Virus record (IMG/VR): IMGVR_UViG_3300027898_000002
Span: 1-64,000 of that record
Reading direction: 5' to 3' (one strand)
DNA length: 64,000 nucleotides
DNA from: a virus
The position numbers and the translations under genes are program-made. The notes under the pieces are model-generated. The model did not search any database, was not told where the DNA came from, and was given only the letters and a program-made list of their open reading frames with translations. Of this stretch, positions 5,136 to 59,117 are shown piece by piece. The stretch's first letter is position 1, and every line of letters starts with the position of its first letter.

Positions 5136-5294
5136 GGGGAGGAGGGGGAGGGGGTTTGTCCAGACGTGGACCCGGCTGTGGTCGACCTGGGCAGGCCTAG
5201 CCGGATAGAGGGGCGGTCTCTTGGGGGATGTTTATACCCCCGGCCGGGACCTGGGACCCGGCCGGGTCCGATCGTATAGGGCAGTAATACTGCC
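5136..5294. other. G-tract plus GC-rich palindromes in the non-coding junction
   Basis: GGGGAGGAGGGGGAGGGGG at 5136-5154. CCCGGCCGGG at 5239-5248 and 5257-5266. Perfect 16-bp palindrome GGACCCGGCCGGGTCC at 5254-5269. 15-bp palindrome GGCAGTAATACTGCC at 5280-5294. Confidence 0.6.
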
Positions 5295-5451
5295 TATTCT
5301 TTACAGCAGCCGTTGTCTGCCCACGGCTTCCCAGTACAATAGCCATTGCGAAGGGGCGATCGACGACGGCCGCTTGATCGTCGTACCCAGGATTGTCACG
5401 TCGTTGTATGTCACGTCGATTTGCATCACAGCCTTTTCCTTTTTGGAATTT

Positions 5452-5769
5452 GGCGCTCATACTTCTTGGATTACTACTTGGCACTGACACGCTCTAGCAC
5501 GTTGGTTTTCATGGTCACTTTTGACACGTTAGGTGAGTTTGGTTTTCTAAGTTACGTCGACACGTTCGAGTAGGTTGGTTGTCAGGTTAATTATGACACG
5601 TTCGAGAGCGTTGGATGACTTCTATACAACGACGCGTTTTCTTTGGTTGGTTTTCTACAAATCATTGACACTCGTTTCAAGAAGATGGTTTTCTAACATG
5701 AAGTGACGCGCTTTTATCATGTGGGTTAAATAGGCGATGTTGGCACGCTTTTCTTTCAAGGTGTTGCTA
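5452..5769. repeat. array A: 9 tandem units of the 36-37 bp bipartite repeat
   Basis: First blocks (GACACG-like) at 5452, 5486, 5523, 5559, 5595, 5631, 5667, 5705 and 5742. Each is followed, usually after 10 nt, by TTGGTTTTCTA-like block. Spacing 34-38 bp. Confidence 0.8.
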
Positions 5770-5781
5770 TCGCCTCTCGAC

Positions 5782-7722
5782 TTATTCAATCGACCCCCAA
5801 TTCGGACCGGTGCCACCATCAGCTCGCAATGGCACAAGCAATTCGACACACGTTTCCATGATGTGTTTCAATTCTCGTAGAGCCTCGTGGTGCACGGGGA
5901 TATCCTCAACGCTCCCATCAAGTTCGTCATGCACAGTCAGGTGTGGGGCACCTATCTCGTGGAATACACCTGCTTCCCAGGCGTTGACCATGGCTGTTTT
6001 CATGATGTCCGCAGCGTCACCCTGCAAACGGGCATTCAAAGCTTTGTGTGTGAACGCCCGTTTGGAACCTTTGACGTATGATGGAAAATAATAAACACCA
6101 TCTCGCGTTTTCTTTTCCCAGGTGTCAAAGTGACGATGCCGACCGGATAGTGTCGTTATGATCCCGGTTTTCATAGCATGCTCCATTGCCTTTTCACGCA
6201 GCTTTCCTAGGAATGGAACACGCCGCAGATAATCGCGATACATCTGCTGCGCAACTTCGAAACTGACACCCAGTTGATCCGCCAAGGCGTCGATACCCAG
6301 ACCATAGATAATTCCGAAGTTGATGTTCTTGGCGAACTTTCTTTCGAGACCTGTAATTGCAGCAACGACCTTGTGATAGTCGGTTGCAGGATCATTCCTG
6401 TATTGCTCAACAACGGCCTCGGCGCCACGAAGCTTAAGCCGAAAAGCGTGATGAATCCCCAATCGAAATTCGATCTGGCTCCAATCGAACTTCCACCATA
6501 TCTTGCCAAACTCGGCCTCGAACAAGCACCTGATCAGGTGACCGAGCTCTTGATCGCGTATTGGGATGTTCTGCAGGTTCGGGTGGCTCGACGAAAAGCG
6601 CCCGCTGACTGTGCCGCCGTCGTCGGACTTTAGCGGATGGAATTGACAATGCACAATCCCGTTGATGCTACCTTCGAGCAAGGCGCCTTCCAAAAACGTA
6701 CCACAGAACTTGTCGAGCCGGCGGGCATCCATGACTAGCCGGCCAACCGGATGCGGACAAACTGCCAGCCAATCCTTGCGAAACGAAGGCTTATTGGTCT
6801 TCTCGGTTCGCGGATACATGATGCCGGCAGTGTCAAACACCTGGGCAAGGCTATCAGCGGCCCATATGTCGACATCGACACCCGACTCCGCCTTGATCTT
6901 TAGCAGCACGTCTGCCTGTCGCCCCCGCAACTTGTCGCGAAGTTCCTCTGTCTTGGCTATGTTGACAGGGACCCCGCGACGCCACATCGCCAACAGCATC
7001 GGCAACAGTTTGGATTCGAGAACGAACAGTTCCCAAACGCCTTGCCGTTCCAGCTCCTCGCGTTGCAATTTGAAAATACGCAACGGGAGATCAACGTCAC
7101 CCTCGGCGTAGGGTCCTATGACGGTTGGTGGTGCCCGCCATATGTTCGATTTGTAATTGGTCTCGCCGAACGCCGCGACGAGCCAATCACGCATTTCGTT
7201 TTGCGGCTTGCCCTCGCCGAGCCATTCGATCGCTATGTTGTTCAACGTATAAGACAGTTTGTTCTCGTCGAGCAGCGGCTCGGCAATCTGGACATCGTAG
7301 AACGGTCCAGTAACTTCGATGTCCGCTACGCTCAGGTACATCAGATCAAACAGGATGTTGGCGCCGATTTTCGGCACCGGGCGTTTAAGCTCCCGCCGTA
7401 GCCAGCGGAAAACTTTTTCCCGATCAAGGTTTGGTCCGATTTCGTGCGCGATCGGATAATAGCGCCGAAACCCTGCTTCAGTCCCGATCGATACGCCGCA
7501 CATGTAACCGTCACGCAAAGCACCGGGTCCAAGCGTCTTAAGATCAGGGTCATACGCTTCTATGTCGATCGCGATCGCCCCTTGACCCTCCAGTGATGGA
7601 TAGTCTTCGGGGAGCTTCCATCCGGTATCGGGAATCGGGGGCAGCGGTCGTGGCCCACTGCTGCCCCGTGTGGCGACGGGAGGGATATCCTCCCAGAACA
7701 AACCTACGGCGTCAGCTCGCAC
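5782..7722 (-). CDS. polA: DNA polymerase, family A (T7-like, with 3'-5' exonuclease, no 5'-3' exonuclease domain)
   Basis: 646 aa. Exonuclease motifs DIEAYD, NILFDL, YAEGDVD. Polymerase motif A DWSQIEFR, motif B RKFAKNINFGIIYG, motif C VHDEL; also PNLQNIP. Confidence 0.95.
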   Translation of the reverse strand: MRADAVGLFWEDIPPVATRGSSGPRPLPPIPDTGWKLPEDYPSLEGQGAIAIDIEAYDPDLKTLGPGALRDGYMCGVSIGTEAGFRRYYPIAHEIGPNLDREKVFRWLRRELKRPVPKIGANILFDLMYLSVADIEVTGPFYDVQIAEPLLDENKLSYTLNNIAIEWLGEGKPQNEMRDWLVAAFGETNYKSNIWRAPPTVIGPYAEGDVDLPLRIFKLQREELERQGVWELFVLESKLLPMLLAMWRRGVPVNIAKTEELRDKLRGRQADVLLKIKAESGVDVDIWAADSLAQVFDTAGIMYPRTEKTNKPSFRKDWLAVCPHPVGRLVMDARRLDKFCGTFLEGALLEGSINGIVHCQFHPLKSDDGGTVSGRFSSSHPNLQNIPIRDQELGHLIRCLFEAEFGKIWWKFDWSQIEFRLGIHHAFRLKLRGAEAVVEQYRNDPATDYHKVVAAITGLERKFAKNINFGIIYGLGIDALADQLGVSFEVAQQMYRDYLRRVPFLGKLREKAMEHAMKTGIITTLSGRHRHFDTWEKKTRDGVYYFPSYVKGSKRAFTHKALNARLQGDAADIMKTAMVNAWEAGVFHEIGAPHLTVHDELDGSVEDIPVHHEALRELKHIMETCVELLVPLRADGGTGPNWGSIE

Positions 7723-39015: not shown

Positions 39016-39232
39016 AGTGAAGCTGCACGTTGATACATCGGAGGCAGAAGCTGCCATCAGGCACTTCCAACTCCAAACCGCCCAGTCGGCACTCGATGAC
39101 ATCCTCGTAGTTCTCGATTGGCTCGGTGCCACCAAGACTCCGACCAAGCAGGCCGAAGCTGCGTTGGGCAGACTGCGCGAGCGGGCGAAAGCAAACGTGC
39201 CGCTGGATGTTCGTATCGTCAACAATCCGTAA
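38996..39232 (+). CDS. hypothetical protein
   Basis: 78 aa. 20-nt overlap with the previous gene. Confidence 0.5.
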   Translation: MATNDVEVKLHVDTSEAEAAIRHFQLQTAQSALDDILVVLDWLGATKTPTKQAEAALGRLRERAKANVPLDVRIVNNP

Positions 39233-39284
39233 ACGACAATCGACGCAAAAAGCGTTCGTTAACATCGGAAGAGAGGAAACGATC

Positions 39285-40679
39285 ATGTTGAATGTTGCAT
39301 TAAATGTTGTCAAGTCATCTACCACGCCCGATGCCACTACTTTCAACGAATCTGCTGTCAATTTATTTTATCGCGGAGACTACATTGAAGCGGCAAGGCA
39401 GTTGCAATGGGCGCTGGTTCTCGATCCGGAATACGATGAAGCATGGCATAACCGAGCCATGATTTTGAACGCGCTTCGTGATCCATTCGACGCCATCCTG
39501 TGTTGTGACAAAGCTATTGAGATAAATCCCTATAACGCGATCTATCACAATACTCGTGGTGTGTGCCTGTCGGCGTTGGGTTTGTTTGCCGATGCGATGG
39601 TGAGTTACGAAGAGTCTCTGCTGCATAACCCCGATTTGTCTTCGGCGTGGCACAACAGAGGCTACGTAGCAAAGCTGCTTAATCGGATGGAGGATGCTGT
39701 TACTTATCATCGTATGGCTACGCATAAGCATCCAGGAAATCCGACTTATCATATGGCGTTGGCTGCCGCGCTTCTTGCCGTGGGCGAGCTCGAGGATGGA
39801 TGGCTGGAATACGAGTATCGTTTCAAAGTACTCAATAGCAACCACAGACAGATTCCACTACCGAAGTGGCGTGGTCATGATATCAAGGGACTTATTCTGT
39901 GCGCCGAACAGGGTTACGGCGATACGATACAGTTCCTGCGTTATGGACCGATACTGAAACAACTCTATCCGAACATGCAGGTATATGTCGAAGTGAAGAA
40001 GCCGCTGCTCCAGTTGGCTCGCACTATGGAAGGCATCGATGGTGTCGTGTTGTACGGCGATCCGCTGCCCAGTGATGCAACGCATTACCTGCCGATGATG
40101 TCGGCGCCAATCTACGCCGGTACGCACACGATCGACGATATACCTTCCGAATCGTATCTTCGCGTGCGGGACAGCGGCAAGCCGGCTATACAGGTCGGCA
40201 AGAGGTCATACAATGTCGGCATTTGTTGGTCTGCTGGTACGCGACCGAATCAGCCGGAGTTGCAGGACATCGCTGAACGCAAAAGCATAGCCTTGCGTTT
40301 TCTCCAGCCGCTGGCGGATATCGAGAACGTCCGTTGGTTCAACCTTCAAGTGCCGTCGCCGGCGGAGAAGCCGTTCCCGATGGAAGACTATGAGATTCAT
40401 GATTTCTACGACACGGCTTGTTTGATATCGTCGCTTGATCTGGTTGTAACTGTCGATACCAGCGTCGCCCATCTGGCAGGGGCTATCGGCGCCAACACAA
40501 TCCTGATGACACCCAGGGATAACTGCTGGCGGTGGTTCGATGATCGTCTGGCGTCGCCGTGGTACCCATCTCTGCGCCAGTATCGGCAGCCTGTATCGGG
40601 AGATTGGGCCAGCGTGATTGCGAAGGTCAAGGAGCTTATTACGGTCATGGCTCGACCAAATCAGGTAGCGGCAGAATAG
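39285..40679 (+). CDS. TPR-repeat protein fused to a GT-B (family 9/41-like) glycosyltransferase domain
   Basis: Start set at ATG 39285 (GAGAGGAAAC upstream). At least four TPR-like units (YRGDYIEAARQLQWALVLDPEYDEAWHNRA...). C-domain motif GYGDTIQFLRY and TVDTSVAHLAGA. Confidence 0.7.
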   Translation: MLNVALNVVKSSTTPDATTFNESAVNLFYRGDYIEAARQLQWALVLDPEYDEAWHNRAMILNALRDPFDAILCCDKAIEINPYNAIYHNTRGVCLSALGLFADAMVSYEESLLHNPDLSSAWHNRGYVAKLLNRMEDAVTYHRMATHKHPGNPTYHMALAAALLAVGELEDGWLEYEYRFKVLNSNHRQIPLPKWRGHDIKGLILCAEQGYGDTIQFLRYGPILKQLYPNMQVYVEVKKPLLQLARTMEGIDGVVLYGDPLPSDATHYLPMMSAPIYAGTHTIDDIPSESYLRVRDSGKPAIQVGKRSYNVGICWSAGTRPNQPELQDIAERKSIALRFLQPLADIENVRWFNLQVPSPAEKPFPMEDYEIHDFYDTACLISSLDLVVTVDTSVAHLAGAIGANTILMTPRDNCWRWFDDRLASPWYPSLRQYRQPVSGDWASVIAKVKELITVMARPNQVAAE

Positions 40680-47821: not shown

Positions 47822-48835
47822 ATGCCGCAACCAACCGTTTTGCAGGTCCACGTACAGGCGGCGCTGACGCAAATCGCCACCGCCTATATTCAGGACGAAA
47901 AGAACTACGTGGCCGAACAGGTGTTTCCCCTCGTGCCGGTCGAATTTCAATCCGACAAATACTTCGTCTTCTCGAAAGACGACTTCTATCGGGACGAAGC
48001 GCAGCGTCGGGCTGATGCGGTCGAATCGGCGGGCGGTGGGTTCAATCTGAATCCGAACAACACCTACAGCGCCGATGTCTGGGCGTACCATAAAGACCTC
48101 GGCGGGCAGACGCGACGCAACGCCGATCCGGCTGTCAATATGGACGTGGCGACCACCAAGTTCGTCATGCAGAAGCTTCTCATTCGCCGAGATCGCTTCT
48201 TCATGCAGCAATACATGGTCAACAGCGTGTGGTCGGCGGATTACGTCGGCACTGCCGGCGGCACACCGGGGGGCACGACTCCGGCGTACTGGAATGACGA
48301 TGCCAATGGTGATCCGTTCACGGACATTGCCAATGCGCAGACCACGATTCTGCAGAATACCGGATTCGAGGCCAACACGTTGCTGAAGGCTTTCCCGGTG
48401 TATCAGGGTCTCCGCAAGCATCCGCTCGTCGTCGATCGCATCAAGTACACGACACGTGCGGACGCCTCCAAGATCACCCCGGAGCTGCTGGCTTCGGCCT
48501 TCGATGTCGAGCGGGTCATCGTATCCAAGGCGGTCTACAATTCCGCTCCGGAGTCGACGACGATAACCGGTTCAGTCGGCACGTACAGCTTCATCGCCAG
48601 CAAGGATGCGCTGCTGTGTCACAGCGCCCCGTCGCCTGGATTGATGATTCCAACAGCCGGCTATGTGTTCGCGTGGTCCGGTTTGACCGGACTCAACACC
48701 ATCGGCGTTCGTATTGCACAAATCCCGATGCCGTGGCTTGGACTGGAGACCGTGCGCACCGAAGGCGAAATGGCTTTCGACATGCAGGTCGTCGGCAAAG
48801 ACCTCGGCATTCGTTTTGCTGGCATTGTGCAGTAA
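47822..48835 (+). CDS. major capsid protein (HK97-fold, protein E-like)
   Basis: 337 aa. Assigned by position after the scaffold and decoration genes, and by the N-terminal LTQIATAYIQDEKNYVAEQVFPLVPV pattern of E-like capsid proteins. Confidence 0.8.
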   Translation: MPQPTVLQVHVQAALTQIATAYIQDEKNYVAEQVFPLVPVEFQSDKYFVFSKDDFYRDEAQRRADAVESAGGGFNLNPNNTYSADVWAYHKDLGGQTRRNADPAVNMDVATTKFVMQKLLIRRDRFFMQQYMVNSVWSADYVGTAGGTPGGTTPAYWNDDANGDPFTDIANAQTTILQNTGFEANTLLKAFPVYQGLRKHPLVVDRIKYTTRADASKITPELLASAFDVERVIVSKAVYNSAPESTTITGSVGTYSFIASKDALLCHSAPSPGLMIPTAGYVFAWSGLTGLNTIGVRIAQIPMPWLGLETVRTEGEMAFDMQVVGKDLGIRFAGIVQ

Positions 48836-51276: not shown

Positions 51277-51456
51277 ATGGCTTTTTTCGTTTCCAGCAAA
51301 GTGAAGCATGCTACCTGCGAAGCCGTGATTACACGCGCTGATGGCCGTGTGGAAAAACTCGGGATTATAGCGGAGTATCATCGCAACCCGCTCAAAAACG
51401 CTGCGAAGAATGTCGTTATCGCCTTCAAACAAATGTTGCGGAGAATTCGGTCATGA
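51277..51456 (+). CDS. possible 59-aa protein
   Basis: MAFFVSSKVKHATCEAVITRADGRVEKLGIIAEYHRNPLKNAAKNVVIAFKQMLRRIRS. ATGA overlap with the next gene. Confidence 0.4.
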   Translation: MAFFVSSKVKHATCEAVITRADGRVEKLGIIAEYHRNPLKNAAKNVVIAFKQMLRRIRS

Positions 51457-51830
51457 CTGCACGAACACAAGACGCCGGCTTGGCGAGAATGACTTCTTTG
51501 CTGGCAGCCGCAACATGGTGGTTACAGTGGGGAACGGGCAGCGGCGCTATCAAGTCTGCGAACGTCGTTACGACGACATCGACAACAGAGGCGCGGAGCT
51601 CCGCGACCATGACACAGCAGACTGTCAATGTTACCAACGATACTTTGCAATTCGTGGCCACGATAGTAGCGGCAGGTTCTCGAACCATTACCGAAGTTGG
51701 TGCTTTTGACGCTGTGGGAACCGGGTCGCCTCCTACAGGTGGAAACATGGATGTGTACGTTGATTTCGGATCGATCGCACTAGCCACAAGCGATTCGATC
51801 GGATTCACGATCAAAGTGACGTATACCTGA
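51453..51830 (+). CDS. hypothetical virion protein
   Basis: 125 aa. Confidence 0.6.
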   Translation: MTARTQDAGLARMTSLLAAATWWLQWGTGSGAIKSANVVTTTSTTEARSSATMTQQTVNVTNDTLQFVATIVAAGSRTITEVGAFDAVGTGSPPTGGNMDVYVDFGSIALATSDSIGFTIKVTYT

Positions 51831-51842
51831 AGGGTTGTTACG

Positions 51843-52397
51843 ATGGACGGTCAATTCTATGTTGATACGAGAGCACCGCACATCAGTGCTGATGTGGCGG
51901 CTGTCACTTTGGCGACGACGAACAAGGCTCTGATACCGGTCGCCAACATCCCTGCCCTTGGGTCCAATTACTTCAATTATATTGGCAAGGCGATGCGAAT
52001 CACCTTGTTCGGCAGGATCACCACGGCGGCGACGCCGGGCAACGGTCAATTCAACCTGTATTGGGGCAGTGGCCTTGATGCCACGGGAACCATCATCGGG
52101 TCTAGCGGCACGTTTGCGTTAACCGCGAGCCAGACGAACATTTCCTGGACGGTGAACATAATTGCGCGTTGTCGCGCTTTGGGAGCTACAGGTTCTCTCC
52201 TTGTAACAGGAGTTATGCAGTTCAATAATGCCGTAGTCGCCAGCACACTTGATCCTATCATGATTCCCGCGACCGCTCCCGCCGCTGTTACGGTGGACTT
52301 GACGGCCGCGAGTCTTCTTGTTCCTCAATTTCTGCGATCTGGCTCGACAGCCGAGACGATGCAGGTTCACGATGTCCTGTTTGAGTCTTTGAATTGA
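51843..52397 (+). CDS. hypothetical virion protein (beta-rich)
   Basis: 184 aa. Confidence 0.6.
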   Translation: MDGQFYVDTRAPHISADVAAVTLATTNKALIPVANIPALGSNYFNYIGKAMRITLFGRITTAATPGNGQFNLYWGSGLDATGTIIGSSGTFALTASQTNISWTVNIIARCRALGATGSLLVTGVMQFNNAVVASTLDPIMIPATAPAAVTVDLTAASLLVPQFLRSGSTAETMQVHDVLFESLN

Positions 52398-52398
52398 T

Positions 52399-55300
52399 GT
52401 GGCAAACAAACTAAAACCATTCTTTCGTAAGCGTCAGGCAGCCCTTGTTCCTGCCCCGACACCTGTTCCCCAGAATCCCGCCAGTCCGGCAACGTATTAT
52501 TGGGGTACTGTTTCGAACGACTGGAATACAGCAAGCTGGTCTGTCTCACCCGGTGCAGGTCCTTACAATCTAGGACCCCCTACAACCGGAGACGACGCTG
52601 TATTTAACGCGGCGTCGACTGCTCCTTGCACAATTGGCAGCACCGGGTCATGTCGATCGCTGGTGATGACAGGAGCAGCCGGGATTCTCGCTGGTAGCGG
52701 TAATCTGACGATTGCCGGACGCAACGGTTCGAATGTTTCGCTTGTCCTGAGCGGAACGATTACGTTTGGCGGGACACTCATTTTTACGGCGACTTCCGGG
52801 GTTGGTACAATCACCACGGCTGGCGCCACGACACCCTCTTACTATTTCAACGGCTCCGGGGGGCAATGGACGTTGCAGGATACGTTGACTGGCACCGGAG
52901 CGGCTGGTTTGCAGATCGATCTGGGAACGCTGGATATCAATTCCAAATCGCTGACTATGAATTCGTTTGTTTCCAATAGCGGATCGTCCGTTCGATCTAT
53001 TTTGAATCCTGGTTCCAATTGGGCTCTCACCGGAACCGGTACAGTATGGAATACAAGTTTAAATACCGGCCTGACTGCGACTTGGCCGAACTTCATAGAC
53101 CATACTAATTCAAGTGCTACAGCGTGCGCGTGGGCAGGGAATGGAACAACCGGTACCGCTTCTGATTTTAATCCGGGAATCACGGCGCATAGAAGAACGG
53201 CGGGAAGCGGTTCGCTCACTCTTAGCGGGAATTTTGGTAACATAAATGTATCGGCCGCTACCAGCCTCACCACTCTTATAGGAAGCGCGACTGTAACCGG
53301 GAATTGGCTAGGGAGTGTTGGTTTAACTTCTGGTGTAGCGCTTGTTATGTCTCCACCTGGCAGCAATACGGCGAACTTTACCCCGGGAAACACCACGGCC
53401 TCTTATGGTTTGACTATCCAAGCCAGTACGTTAGCCACTGTTCAATTGCAGGCTGCCAGTACATTCAGCCAATTGATACTCAATAGCGGAACTTTAGACC
53501 TTCGTAGTGTGGCTATCACAGCCAATAGTTTTGCTTCCAGTGGGTTTGCGACACGGGCGGTTATCAATCCTGGGGCGACCTGGACAATCAACGGCACGGG
53601 CACAACCTGGGACACGTCGATATCGAGCGGTTTAACCGCTGCTTGGCCAACGACAGTCAACTTCAACGATTCGTCGGCGACAGCCCAAACGTGGAAAGGG
53701 AATCCGAGCTACAGCTTCGGATTAGGCTCGGAAGACTTTCTGGCGACCACCACGTTTAAAAGAAGTGCCGGCAGTGGTACGCTAAGCATCGTCAATCCGA
53801 GTTATCTTGGGTCACTGGACTTTACAGGTTATTCCGGCACGGCATCCGGAACTGTCTTTCTCCCCGGCACGTTCACGGGAACGTTGCCGGCCGCTCTGGT
53901 CATCAATTTTATACGTGTGTACACAGTAGCCACGAGCTCTTCGGTATCAGTTCTCAAAGTGTTTCAACGCACTTTGGCTGTAGCGACTACTTCGGCAGTA
54001 ACATTGCTCCGCGTCGCGGCAAAGCTCTTGTCGGTAAGCACAAGTTCGAACCCTGTACGGATCGTATCAATTGCCAAAGCTCTGGTTGTTGGAACGAGCT
54101 CGAGTATTACAGCTATCAAGGCTGTTAGCAAGATTCTGTCGGCGTCCACAAGTAGCGCCACATCGATCATCACACGCCTTATAAGAGGCGTAGTTGTTTC
54201 GTTCACGACTACTTCAACGGTCGCCAGAACGTTGTCGGTTCAAAAAATCCTGGGCGTGGCGACATCATCCCTGCCCTTGGTAGCCCGGTCGATCGGAAAG
54301 AATCTGGCGGCGGCGACGATAAGCGCTGTCGGCAGTGCCGCTAACAAGAAATGGGCGTTAGCTCTATCTGCCGTGACAAGCAGCGCCGTGTCGGTTTTGG
54401 CGAGCAAGATACGTCTCGTTACTTTGCTGATTGGAACAGCGTCCAGTGTTGCGATAGTTCGCTCTGCAGCCAAGCAGTTGGCAGTGGTTACGTCTTCTGC
54501 GGCGGTTTCAACCAAGCTGGCAAGTAAGCTACTGGCAGTTTCCACTAGCAGCGCTGCGGGCCGTGTTGCCGCTGTCGGGAAAATTCTAGCTGTCACGACC
54601 TTCGGCTCTGTGGCGGTTGTCGTCGTAAAAGCTTTTTTGCGAACATTGACGGTAGCGACATCATCGGCAGCGACAGTTGGACGTGCGGTTAATCGTATTT
54701 TTCCTGTAGCCACATTTTCAGTTGTTGTTGTATCACGATTGATTGCCAAAGTGTTTGTGGCTGGCACGTCGTCTTCTGTTAGCTCGACAAGAAACGTGTC
54801 AAAGCTGTTGGTGGTCCTGACTGGTTCGAGCGTTTCTTTTACCCGATTGATAGCCAAGGCCTTTGCTGTATCAACAGCGTCTGTGGTGTCTGTGGTGCGC
54901 TCAATCGGAAAGCGGGTGGCGGTATCCACCAGCAGTTCGTTGACAGTTCTTGCTGCGAAACTAAAATTCCTGTTGCTGAGTATGACAACAGGAAGCTCCG
55001 TTATTCTTACGACAGGAAAAATACACGGATTGCTTTTGTCTGTGTTCACTACGTCTACTATTGCAGCGAATAAAACTGTAGGAAAATTGCTATTCATAGG
55101 TGTGGCGTCGTTTGTGTCGTCTGTTCTAAGCAGGCTGAAAGTTTTCTATGTCGATGTACTGTCTGAAATTCGTGTTGTGTCGGTAGCAGCAGATTCCAGC
55201 CGGATTGTAGATGTTCCTGCTGTGGGCAATGCGACACCTGTTCCTGTAAGCGCCGGTCAAGTTGTCGATACGTCGGCGGCTGCTAATGTCGTTTTAGTAA

Positions 55301-55419
55301 GTGGTGTTTCGAATATTGTTTCTGTTTCAGCATCCAGTAACACGGTTTCGGTTCCCGTCGATGCCAGTCGACTTATTGCTACGGAGAGCAATAATAACAC
55401 GCCGGAGACTCCAGTATGA
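52399..55419 (+). CDS. large virion-associated repeat protein: N-terminal beta-helix-like region plus about 22 tandem 18-residue repeats
   Basis: 1006 aa, GTG start abutting the previous stop. N-terminal WNTASWSV...DDAVFNAAST...CRSLVM..AG.L.GSGNLTI units resemble autotransporter-associated beta-strand (PATR) repeats. Residues ~505-925 repeat K-x-L-x-V-x-T-S-S-x3-V-x-R-x3. Confidence 0.8.
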   Translation: MANKLKPFFRKRQAALVPAPTPVPQNPASPATYYWGTVSNDWNTASWSVSPGAGPYNLGPPTTGDDAVFNAASTAPCTIGSTGSCRSLVMTGAAGILAGSGNLTIAGRNGSNVSLVLSGTITFGGTLIFTATSGVGTITTAGATTPSYYFNGSGGQWTLQDTLTGTGAAGLQIDLGTLDINSKSLTMNSFVSNSGSSVRSILNPGSNWALTGTGTVWNTSLNTGLTATWPNFIDHTNSSATACAWAGNGTTGTASDFNPGITAHRRTAGSGSLTLSGNFGNINVSAATSLTTLIGSATVTGNWLGSVGLTSGVALVMSPPGSNTANFTPGNTTASYGLTIQASTLATVQLQAASTFSQLILNSGTLDLRSVAITANSFASSGFATRAVINPGATWTINGTGTTWDTSISSGLTAAWPTTVNFNDSSATAQTWKGNPSYSFGLGSEDFLATTTFKRSAGSGTLSIVNPSYLGSLDFTGYSGTASGTVFLPGTFTGTLPAALVINFIRVYTVATSSSVSVLKVFQRTLAVATTSAVTLLRVAAKLLSVSTSSNPVRIVSIAKALVVGTSSSITAIKAVSKILSASTSSATSIITRLIRGVVVSFTTTSTVARTLSVQKILGVATSSLPLVARSIGKNLAAATISAVGSAANKKWALALSAVTSSAVSVLASKIRLVTLLIGTASSVAIVRSAAKQLAVVTSSAAVSTKLASKLLAVSTSSAAGRVAAVGKILAVTTFGSVAVVVVKAFLRTLTVATSSAATVGRAVNRIFPVATFSVVVVSRLIAKVFVAGTSSSVSSTRNVSKLLVVLTGSSVSFTRLIAKAFAVSTASVVSVVRSIGKRVAVSTSSSLTVLAAKLKFLLLSMTTGSSVILTTGKIHGLLLSVFTTSTIAANKTVGKLLFIGVASFVSSVLSRLKVFYVDVLSEIRVVSVAADSSRIVDVPAVGNATPVPVSAGQVVDTSAAANVVLVSGVSNIVSVSASSNTVSVPVDASRLIATESNNNTPETPV

Positions 55420-55691
55420 TCGTATGGCCTTGCATAGCGCCTACAGAAGTTCTTCCTTACGGCATCAACTGGGCACCACGACTCGGTACCGATACCATAG
55501 TCACGTCTGTGTGGTCGGCGTCGGTTCCTCCTGGGTTGACTTTAACGAATAAGGCAAACACGGCCAGCGCAACTTCCGTAACCATATCGGGTGCCGTGTT
55601 GAATGTGACGTACACTATCGTCAACACTATCACGACCACTTTGAGCTGTACGGAAGTCGAGACTGTGCAAATCACTTGCGCGCCGAAGTAG
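55416..55691 (+). CDS. hypothetical small virion protein
   Basis: 91 aa. ATGA overlap. Confidence 0.6.
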   Translation: MIVWPCIAPTEVLPYGINWAPRLGTDTIVTSVWSASVPPGLTLTNKANTASATSVTISGAVLNVTYTIVNTITTTLSCTEVETVQITCAPK

Positions 55692-56813: not shown

Positions 56814-59117
56814 ATGCCAGTTTTTCTCGACGGTCAGCAAAATCTCGCGGCTCTGTCAGTTCCGGCCGTATACGGCGACATCATCCTGCCTACTCCGTTT
56901 TTGCTCGGCACGCCGACGAATCTGGAAGGTCTCGTTGGTGTTGGCTCGTGGGGACCACTGAACTCAATCATCCCCGTCAGCAAGTCAGTTGACGCGGCCG
57001 TGTCGCTCGGCACGCCCGTTATTCGAAATTATGATATCTCTTCGTACGTGGCTGCAGCAAGTCAGGTCGGCGGGGCGATCGGATTCCTGTGCGTTCGAGT
57101 CAGCGATGGCACCGACGTGGCCGCTACGGCCGCAATTCAGTCCGGTGCCACCAACGCCTCCGGGAGCATCACCATCAACGACAATGGCATGACGAACCAG
57201 ACGATTGTAGTGAACGGCACTACTATCACCTGGGGAACAAGTGTCGTGGTCGGGCCGAATCTCGCGGCCACAGTCACCAATCTGCTTACGTTCCTGCAGT
57301 CTTCGGCTGATGTGAATATCAGCAAGATGACTTACGCGCTATCGCCGACTGTCAGCAATCAGATCGTGTGTACGTCGGTTCTGGCCGGAACTGCCGGCAA
57401 CGCCTACACCCTGACAAACGGAACTTCAACAACACACGTCACTGTTTCCGGTGCGACACTTGCAGGTGGTGCGGCGTCCGGTGCAACAGCGTTGACGCTG
57501 ACAGCCAAATACAGCGGCATCCTGGGCAACAAAATTCAATACAGCGTCCAGAACGGCTCGGCTTCCAATACCTTCATGATCAACATCGCTTTCCCGGGTT
57601 TGATCCCGGAGCAGTTCAACAATATTCCCGGTCCTACGGCAGCGAGCGGTACGGCCATTTTTTCCGCCAATCCGGCACCGTCAGATACGCTTACGATATT
57701 CGGCACGGCGATTACGTTCGTGGCGTCAGGCGCTACCGCCAACCAAGTCAACATCGGGTCGTCGTTGGCTGTTACTCTGGCAAATCTCTTGTCGCTACTT
57801 ATCAGCTCCGCCGACGCCAATCTAATCAAAGGTTCATACGGCATCAATGCTGGACAGAACACGATTACGATCGCGGCCAATCAGACGTATTCGACCGGAG
57901 CTGTTGCCGGTTCAGCCGGCAATGCTTTGACGTTGGTGAAATCATCTACTGTGATAACAGTAAGCGGCGCTACGCTATCGGGTGGCGTGGGTACTTGGAA
58001 TAACTTCTGGGTCAACGCTGCCGGCGTCATCAACAACGGTAACGCTTTCCACGGGCCGAGCCAATTCGTGATCGCCACAGCCGGAGCAGCGCAGGTGCCG
58101 CCAATTCTGTCGACGCCTGTCATTCTGTCGGGCGGAACAGACGGCGCTTCCGGTGTTACGGATGCTACACTCATGGGGCAAGATGTCGTTCCGCGCAAGG
58201 GCATGTATGTCCTACGCGGATCAAATGCCGATTGTTTCACATTGTGTGATCTTTCGACGATCGCCGATTACTCCGCCATTGCCAGCTTTGCCTTGTCGGA
58301 AACGATGATGGCAATTCAGGCTTCGCCGTCAGGCGACACGATCGCCGGAGCACTTGGCACGCGGATCAATGCCGGCATTGACACTCCCTGGTTCTGGTTT
58401 CTCTTGGGAGATTGGCCGAGTTTCTACGACAGCTTCAATGGTGTTACGCGTCTGATCAATCCCAGCGCCATCGGTATCGGTATCGTCGGCAATCTGTCGC
58501 CCCAGCAATCGCCCCTCAACAAGCCGTTGCAGGGTGTCAGTTCGACGCAGCGCACATCGCTGGGGCAAACCTACAGTGACGCCGAGCTGAGCCTGATCAA
58601 CACGGGCGGCATCGATGTCATTCTTGGCCCGCTGTCGTCACCCGGTGGATTCTACTTCAGCTTCGCCACCGGTCGCAACGCCTCGAGCAATACTGCTGCG
58701 GCCGGCGTCGAGTATACCCGCATGACAAACTTCCTTATCAGGGCCGCCCAAAGCAAGGCAGCCGGGAGTTTCATCGGGCAACTGCAATCGATCCAGCCGA
58801 ATGATCAGACACGCGCCAATGCCAAGTCGCTGTTCGATGGTTTCTCTGCCCAGCTTGCCGCGTCGGAGTCCGGTTTGGGCATCAACGGACAGGGTATGAT
58901 CGATTACCCGTGGCTTGTACAGTGCGATCTGAACAACAACCCGCCAAACCTTCAGGCGCTGGGATACCTGTTCTTGTTCTGGCAGGTCCGCTACCTGAAC
59001 GTCATTCGATATTTCGTCGTCAAATTCCAGGGCGGCGGGAACGTCACAGTGACAGTACAGAATTCGCCGCCGTCTGCGTCGCAGTTTGCCCAGGCGATCA
59101 ACACCAACGCGGCATAA
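56814..59117 (+). CDS. tail sheath protein with a duplicated insertion domain
   Basis: 767 aa. [19 protein letters not shown]...[16 protein letters not shown] and the C-terminal [23 protein letters not shown] fit the sheath pattern. Two ~100-aa related inserts lie at aa 117-219 and 279-391. Confidence 0.8.

Follow-up and report, generated by a model that had tools for sequence, protein, structure and literature searches.

A tandem-repeat protein of a myophage neck module as a candidate axial chain of a beads-on-a-string fibre

A 1006–amino acid (aa) protein is encoded at positions 52399..55419 (plus strand) of a 64,000-nucleotide (nt) stretch of viral DNA, positions 1 to 64,000 of IMG/VR virus record IMGVR_UViG_3300027898_000002 (hereafter, the window). 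Our analysis suggests that this protein is the axial chain, or "rope," of a neck fibre of the beads-on-a-string type seen in fibre I of phage GP4 and in phage Bas63, and that the chain is fused to a distal adhesin head; we regard this reading as probable. To our knowledge, such fibres were recognised only in 2023–2025, by cryo–electron microscopy of a few phages, and the structure of GP4 fibre I was reportedly described by Zheng et al. (J Mol Biol 2023). GP4 is a Ralstonia podophage. In the published descriptions of its fibre I (PMC11445570, PMC12609058), five gp80 dimers sit on an elongated "rope" protein, and the fibre is anchored on a 15-mer of the 93-aa immunoglobulin (Ig)–like adaptor gp77; the corresponding PDB entry, 8JOU, holds ten gp80 chains. 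In the collar-whisker complex of the Felixounavirus phages Bas63 and Sf14 (Sci Adv 2025; PMC12609058), whisker dimers of Bas63, an Escherichia myophage, wrap an extended rope "such as beads on a string." This rope lies N-terminal of an Ig collar domain and traverses the grooves of whisker monomers, completing their incomplete sandwiches (PMC12609058).

In the arrangement that we propose for the window, each ~18-residue unit of residues 506–925 would offer a conserved short strand, K-x-L-x-V-x-T-S-S, that would pass through the groove of one copy of a 125-aa Gp80-like protein and complete its open β-sandwich. Threaded one after another, about 22 such subunits, or 11 dimers, would balance the chain's charge of +44. 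At the C terminus, the acidic tail (residues 926–1006) would dock the fibre on a ring of a 91-aa Gp77-like Ig protein around the neck, and the N-terminal β-helix–like region (residues 31–505) would form a host-surface binding head at the distal tip. We infer the physical threading, the ratio of one unit per bead subunit, the orientation of the chain, and the receptor-binding role; the genomic context described below favours such a partner-dependent rope over a self-folding solenoid.

Tandem repeats of the candidate rope

The first-pass annotation of the window had described a 1006-aa open reading frame (ORF) with about 22 tandem 18-residue repeats and had suggested repeat detection as a check. 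The ORF exists: it opens with GTG 2 nt beyond the stop codon of an upstream 184-aa gene, and its own stop codon overlaps the ATG of the downstream 91-aa gene by 4 nt. The repeats were recovered as well. When residues 505–925 were subjected to BLOSUM autocorrelation, a strong peak was found at a lag of 18 residues (z = 11.6) and another at twice that lag, 36 residues (z = 8.1; both against 300 shuffles), with further peaks at lags 56 and 74–76. A hidden Markov model (HMM) of the unit placed 22 full units in residues 506–913 (starts at 506, 524, 542 ... 896), followed by a partial 23rd, and the whole proposed rope occupies residues 506–925 (53914..55173, plus strand). Most units are 18 aa long, and a few are 20–22 aa. 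Each consists of the pattern K-x-L-x-V-x-T-S-S and a variable half. Among the 15 exact 18-mers, position 1 is K or R and position 7 is T in every case, position 3 is L or F in 14, position 9 is S in 14, and position 5 is V in 12; positions 10–18 are variable, and the units have no conserved Gly or Pro turn. Such conservation of half of each unit is what would be expected of a docking peptide and thus supports the rope reading. The composition of the region is β-prone, rich in V, S, T, and A, and its 420 residues include 46 K/R and 2 D/E, giving a net charge of +44 and an isoelectric point (pI) of ~12.

The repeats are old and diverged and are maintained by selection at the protein level, since no tandem array was detected at the DNA level by Tandem Repeats Finder in the target gene and since the units resemble one another in DNA sequence above background at the first (identity 0.40 versus a background of 0.29) and second (0.46 versus 0.32) codon positions and far less so at the third (0.30 versus 0.25). 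The annotated frame is the sole frame without stop codons, and the periodicity is strongest there (z = 10.8). These results bear on the explanation that the C-terminal half is noncoding or that an assembly or frameshift error has joined two genes. Such an artefact might be suspected from locus L003, where the two halves are separate genes, from the presence of a 285-aa antisense ORF (54240–55097, minus strand) inside the repeat region, and from the GC content at third codon positions (GC3), which is 0.49–0.51 in the target, below the 0.66 of the tail sheath gene (56814–59117) and the 0.73 of the major capsid protein (MCP) gene (47822–48835). However, the frame remains open for 1006 codons, the conservation falls on codon positions 1 and 2, an identical protein is recorded on two contigs, and the head-plus-repeats architecture is also found in family members elsewhere. 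The antisense ORF shows a weaker periodicity and is best explained as what an S/T/V/A-rich repeat would be expected to produce on the opposite strand, rather than as a gene. We therefore consider an artefact hardly credible. The low GC3, taken together with the cassette swap in locus L015 (see below), suggests that the module was acquired horizontally.

The whole 1006-aa protein matched nothing in Pfam, PHROGs, or NCBIfam, in Pfam and NCBIfam even at E ≤ 1; a PDB sequence search returned chance matches alone (E > 0.1), and blastn and tblastn searches of the target gene against 50,697 GenBank phages gave zero matches. The view that the repeat belongs to no described family is thus borne out in these four family and structure collections. 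Relatives were detected among 1.84 billion cluster representatives, where the 18-residue family is rare, with 38 representatives at E ≤ 1e-3 (P0029–P0066; phmmer E values from 3e-21 to 1e-3). The unit of the family is a tandem [KR]-x-L-x-V-x-T-[ST]-S of 18 aa, occasionally 20–22 aa, behind a variable head. The dozen or so sequences that we inspected all begin with a variable globular head and continue with 10 to more than 40 units; the N-terminal heads are of lectin type or otherwise globular, and in one member, the head is a LamG lectin domain (E = 8e-18). Lags of 18, 36, 56, and 74 were also observed in P0033, P0034, and P0042. Both the unit HMM and a regular expression undercount the units of distant relatives. 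P0034 (1831 aa) has roughly 40 units behind a ~1000-aa head, and a very long member of 1885 aa is encoded at positions 6395–12052 of L064; if one unit binds one bead, such members imply much longer fibres.

The first-pass annotation had equated 18 residues with one turn of a 3 × 6 left-handed β-helix and had considered a long, regular solenoid or fibre plausible. In a more general form of that model, the units would fold alone, as a monomer or, likelier, a trimer, into a β-solenoid, a hairpin stack, or a triple β-spiral; the resulting self-assembling shaft would carry the β-helix head, and the small neighbours would be separate neck decorations. The strong and regular periodicity and the V/S/T/A-rich composition agree with a shaft, and AlphaFold2 (AF2) draws short hairpin-like strands across much of the repeat region. 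A period of 18–24 residues is typical of solenoid turns, and trimeric shafts usually model badly as monomers. However, sub-periods of 6 and 9 residues are missing (z = −1.0 and −0.8, respectively). The left-handed β-helix, which predicts three hexapeptides per 18-residue turn, was therefore rejected; in the same analysis, z was 1.0 for a lag of 12 residues and 11.1 for one of 18. The units also lack a conserved Gly/Pro turn. A chain with a net charge of +44 and 2 acidic residues per 420 aa would be strongly self-repulsive when compact or trimeric. In the AF2 model of the full protein, residues 503–1006 had predicted local distance difference test (pLDDT) values of 25–58, mostly below 50, so the monomer check returned no confident fold; we counted this, like the conservation of half of each unit, for the rope and against a shaft, although the AF2 alignment over the repeats was 4 sequences deep and the result is weak negative evidence. 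A shaft would also leave unexplained the tight linkage to the Gp80 subfamily and the joint replacement of bead and rope in L015, which are described next. We consider it unlikely.

Linkage of the candidate bead and rope genes

The target lies in the interval between neck and sheath genes, as the first-pass annotation had stated, and is flanked there by a clear Gp77 gene and, more weakly, by a Gp80 gene. The 91-aa protein (55416..55691, plus strand) is a Gp77-like Ig-type fibre-tail adaptor, or collar subunit (Pfam PF23148; E = 2.5e-14, 54 bits, which passes the 27-bit cut-off), and sister phage L015 has a Gp77-like gene in the same place (E = 2.4e-16). The 125-aa protein (51453..51830, plus strand; net charge −2), our candidate bead, that is, a whisker or fibre I subunit, matches Pfam PF23140 (Gp80) with an E value of 3e-4. 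Of its 35 close homologues, 27 match Gp80 singly (best E = 2.3e-7), no other family is matched consistently, and the motif FDA..TGGN is common to the 125-aa protein and GP4 gp80. It is thus probably a member of a divergent Gp80 subfamily, as judged from sequence. Neither the 91-aa nor the 125-aa protein of the window found anything in a PDB sequence search. Given these flanking genes, the target very probably belongs to a fibre of the neck, of the collar, or of the whisker type.

The gene order is also shared with GP4. In the GP4 genome (minus strand), gp80 (140 aa) is followed by gp79 (325 aa), gp78 (568 aa), and gp77 (93 aa); in the window, the order is 125 aa, 184 aa, 1006 aa, and 91 aa, just upstream of the sheath gene. 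The succession of candidate bead, candidate rope, and adaptor is thus common to the window and GP4. GP4 gp79 (L009 8948–9925, minus strand) shows a 10/20/40-residue periodicity over ~200 aa. Since this period and length fit ten subunits in five dimers, gp79 is our candidate for the GP4 rope, with ten units for the ten gp80 chains. No Pfam match was obtained for gp79 or gp78, and gp79 was not found by sequence in the PDB.

When two collections were searched with the bead alone, 60 loci were obtained, 53 of them with at least 1.5 kb of downstream sequence. An ORF of the 18-residue family was present no more than 3 kb downstream in 40 of these 53 loci, and in about half of the 40, no more than ~60 nt separate the end of the bead gene from the start of this ORF. 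In L031, a bead copy (69% identity) is located directly upstream of the family member P0033, and L006 has the same pairing as the window and L031. Bead-plus-rope pairs were also seen in L085 (Rhizobium sp. Root1220) and L086 (Bradyrhizobium japonicum in8p8), where they presumably sit in prophages; these cultured Rhizobiales could provide experimentally tractable examples.

Bead and rope also change together. Between L015 and the window, identity is 84% for the MCP, 69% for the sheath, 65% for the 184-aa protein, and 46% for the Gp77-like protein. The bead slot of L015 is occupied by another Gp80 protein (285 aa, 79 bits) and its rope slot by another repeat protein (720 aa, rich in R and A, with a period of about 20); that is, bead and rope have been replaced jointly around a conserved 184-aa gene.

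Comparison of loci further revealed that head, repeats, and collar-proximal domains are joined or split in different ways. In L003 (7554–12262), a Gp80-like gene is followed by P0002 (1288 aa, without repeats), the best homologue of the target head, and by a basic repeat ORF akin to P0047, P0035, and P0050; P0002 and the repeat ORF are separate and translationally coupled, with a 4-nt overlap. Since head and repeats are adjacent separate genes there, the window gene is a fusion of two genes. In P0033 and P0037, the repeats are instead fused to a C-terminal domain of ~110 aa, which is homologous to the small products of the genes that immediately follow the rope-slot genes of L013 and L014 (E from 4e-8 to 3e-12); homology of these Ig-like tails to Gp77 was not detected. 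The resulting polarity of head, repeats, and small β domain matches that of Bas63. These fusions and splits were counted for the rope. The 18-residue family, its link to the bead subfamily, the length of the proposed rope, and its fusion to a head are all undescribed.

The rope-slot proteins of other loci had no Pfam match and vary in charge, from +27 in L003 and +37 in L015 to acidic or neutral values in L018, L027, L013, and L021. These values bear on the proposal that the largely extended cationic segment is no scaffold for beads but binds DNA, lipopolysaccharide (LPS), teichoic acids, or capsule directly; the protein would then be internal or ejected, or else an electrostatic tether to the host surface. 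The excess of K/R over D/E (46 versus 2) and the pI of ~12 speak for it, as do the likewise basic slot proteins of L003 and L015, and a contact of GP4 fibre I with LPS is speculated upon in PMC12609058. However, what is conserved is not charge alone, since hydrophobic and Thr/Ser positions are kept besides K1; the slot proteins of four loci are acidic or neutral; and polyanion binding explains neither why the gene lies between those for collar and bead nor why it co-occurs with the bead gene. We consider it quite improbable. For the threaded rope, the balance between the chain (+44) and 22 beads of −2 each is suggestive but not valid for every rope type; in P0030, ~10 units carry +18, and the bead encoded next to it has a charge of −2.

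Several results weigh against the threaded rope. The bead of the window, at 21.5 bits, is below the Pfam Gp80 cut-off of 27 bits, and hhalign relates it only weakly to GP4-type Gp80 proteins (E = 0.0015, probability 16%). The assignment of the GP4 rope to gp79 is itself our conclusion, and no sequence similarity was found between the target rope and gp79. The super-repeats span 3–4 units (56 and 74 aa) and not the 2 expected from dimers. A period of ~18–24 residues is also typical of β-solenoid turns and, taken alone, is not discriminating. In 13 of the 53 usable bead loci, no rope was detectable. The AF2 confidence over the repeats is low, which the shallow 4-sequence alignment alone may cause. 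Last, the conserved 184-aa neighbour is not accounted for by the rope model.

Head, tail, and neighbouring genes

The first 30 residues of the target (52399..52488, plus strand) form a basic, Pro-rich leader with a net charge of +5, which AF2 models as a low-confidence helix. This leader is missing from the homologues of the N-terminal region, which open directly at a YWVGG motif. Residues 31–505 (52489..53913, plus strand) constitute the β-helix–like head, the proposed distal adhesin domain. It contains two copies of a ~150-aa module, at residues 171–319 and 359–504 (local alignment z = 19.5). We found 27 metagenome homologues (P0002–P0028; E down to 2.4e-64), whose alignment is confined to residues ~14–492. 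They are 570–1750 aa long, with up to about nine modules of 150–190 aa, and start with MA.RYWVGG.G.W...NWS..SGG.GGA.VP...D.V.FD. The family motif (Y/R)YWVGG..W...W....P..D.V.F followed by ~150–190-aa modules is present in the target, where W..W..W...P..GDDAVF at residues 36–68 corresponds to the consensus N terminus. The C-terminal end of the family (…GNL.T..S… / …NTGW.F) is missing from the target, whose second module passes into the repeats at ~505. The head is thus a truncated family member fused to the proposed rope. All three homologue contigs that we traced are phage: the gene for P0002 has a Gp80-like gene immediately upstream, that for P0005 has terminase, portal, and capsid genes as neighbours, and that for P0007 is the third gene after a Baseplate_J gene.

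The N-terminal region had been likened to autotransporter-associated (PATR) repeats on the strength of W..NW-type signatures. A β-solenoid–like fold, which in PATR proteins is a right-handed β-helix, is plausible, since AF2 modelled residues 31–330 with pLDDT of 70–87 and short, regularly spaced strands. In Foldseek searches with the head, nearly all matches were β-helix proteins (autotransporter passengers and tailspikes), all at E > 1 and with TM scores of no more than 0.19. The W..NW motif is also real. What did not hold is the short PATR-size repeat, in place of which we find the two ~150-aa modules, and membership in the family: the PATR models (Pfam PF12951 and a TIGR-type model of NCBIfam) gave no match to the target at E ≤ 1, and PATR therefore describes a resemblance, not membership. 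A β-solenoid–like phage fibre head is a reasonable description.

At the other end, residues 926–1006 (55174..55416, plus strand) form an acidic, V/S/A-rich tail, the proposed collar-proximal end. It consists of about seven 9-residue units of the form x-x-N-x-V-x-V-x-x (z = 3.1 at lag 9 and 3.9 at lag 19), and AF2 modelled it with pLDDT of 25–35. Other ropes have short C-terminal repeats or a fused Ig-like domain at this position. Short repeats of 9–11 residues were seen as three "NRVTIIGRP" units in P0029 and four "IVGxPD" units in P0040, and the L013 rope likewise ends in a few repeats of 9–11 residues. Such terminal repeats might engage collar subunits.

Between the bead gene and the target lies the gene for the 184-aa protein (51843..52397, plus strand), a jelly-roll protein of a large uncharacterised family with at least 693 homologues. 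Its AF2 model is a confident and complete jelly roll (pLDDT 87.7) that resembles C-terminal domains of tailspikes and depolymerases (TM scores normalised to the query of 0.5–0.74 in BFVD) and, weakly, lectins. The family is most conserved in a nearly invariant N-terminal arm of ~30 residues, which has no regular secondary structure in the AF2 model; the confidence is low for its first 20 residues. A strongly periodic protein is encoded within 1.5 kb downstream of the 184-aa gene in 12–13 of 16 loci (L013–L029 range). These proteins belong to unrelated repeat families with units of 20–24 or 33–37 aa: G/A-rich repeats of 20 aa, 'ISPPSVALSLSETAPSV' repeats of 24 aa, acidic repeats, and repeats of 33–37 aa. 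The 184-aa protein is possibly a lectin-like knob or an assembly partner. Two other roles were considered and rejected. It is not a second Gp80-type bead, since hhalign revealed no relation and the model is a complete jelly roll, and it is not paired specifically with the 18-residue repeats, since 0 of 17 loci anchored on it carry that family and L031 lacks a 184-aa gene.

Downstream, the tail sheath gene (56814..59117, plus strand) has weak PHROG and Pfam sheath matches, and its product is 42% identical to the sheaths of the Ralstonia phages Hyacinthe and Raharianne; this neighbour places the module at the head-tail junction of a myophage. The window sheath is 767 aa long, and 57% of it aligns to the 510-aa Hyacinthe sheath and its relatives in Ralstonia and Komagataeibacter phages, so it carries a large extra insertion or domain. 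Farther upstream, at 39126–40679 and just ahead of the Mu-like portal gene, a 517-aa TPR protein with a weak glycosyltransferase-9 match is encoded; L003 encodes a homologue of this protein (29% identity, E = 2e-42) at 5230–6723, two genes upstream of P0002.

Implications and comparison with known fibres

Since the rope of such fibres belongs to no sequence family, it escapes annotation. The locus studied here supplies a recognisable rope repeat and evidence for the joint inheritance and exchange of bead and rope. It also supplies a rule for finding such fibres: a Gp80-like gene and, behind it, genes for a periodic protein (unit length ~18–24 residues) and for a small Ig-like protein. The proposed rope would be five times longer than that of Bas63 and twice as long as that of GP4 and would itself bear an adhesin head. 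Should this be confirmed, the number of repeats could serve both to predict the length of a fibre and to engineer it, and many "hypothetical repetitive proteins" of phage structural modules would be explained.

A broader proposal joins several statements: that the 18-residue units are docking peptides of an undescribed kind, each holding a single Gp80-like subunit, and that their number determines how long the fibre is; that the GP4 rope is gp79; and that bead-rope cassettes are exchanged while heads are swapped independently in widespread modular fibres. We put this joint reading forward tentatively, as a plausible conjecture. If it is true, there would be about 11 dimers in the window and up to ~40 units in P0034; bead and rope would co-evolve and move as a cassette, with the head (β-helix, LamG, or lectin-like) swapped independently; and host recognition of this modular, length-programmable type would be widespread among phages and prophages, Rhizobium and Bradyrhizobium prophages among them, rather than a peculiarity of GP4 and Felixounavirus.

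Among known systems, PATR passenger domains share with the target an N-terminal motif of the W..NW...P...D.V.F type, a G/T/S/N-rich composition, and probably a β-solenoid fold, and one head homologue was automatically named "fibronectin-binding autotransporter adhesin" by the Joint Genome Institute. Unlike in PATR proteins, the module of the target family is ~150–190 aa and not ~30 aa, and there is no β-barrel translocator. The whiskers of T4, formed by fibritin (wac), resemble the proposed fibre in their location at the neck and in having their gene near head-tail joining genes. However, fibritin is a trimeric α-helical coiled coil, whereas nothing helical is predicted in the target. Left-handed β-helix and triple β-spiral shafts, such as those of adenovirus and reovirus, have a similar period of 15–18 residues and a β-rich composition; unlike them, the target combines an extreme positive charge with the absence of a hexapeptide sub-period, of a Gly/Pro turn, and of a confident fold.

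The closest counterparts are the two beads-on-a-string fibres. Bas63 is, like the window virus, a myophage, and it has the neck location and the Ig-like collar that we propose for the window fibre. No sequence similarity was detected between the target and Bas63. In Bas63, the collar protein itself provides the rope, as a short extension of its N terminus that carries two dimers; the proposed rope of the window is a protein of its own, 1006 aa long, which has ~22 units and bears a head at its distal end. The Bas63 polarity, with the rope N-terminal of the collar, would also apply to the window and is seen in the fused proteins P0033 and P0037. GP4, in contrast to the window virus, is a podophage; its candidate rope has ~10 units against ~22, whereas the window rope is strongly basic, is fused to a 470-aa β-helix head, and is accompanied by an extra, conserved 184-aa jelly-roll gene. 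Yet both loci have the same Pfam families on their flanks, Gp77 clearly and Gp80 weakly, and in both, the bead gene comes first, the adaptor gene comes last, and a periodic protein rich in glycine or small residues is encoded between them.

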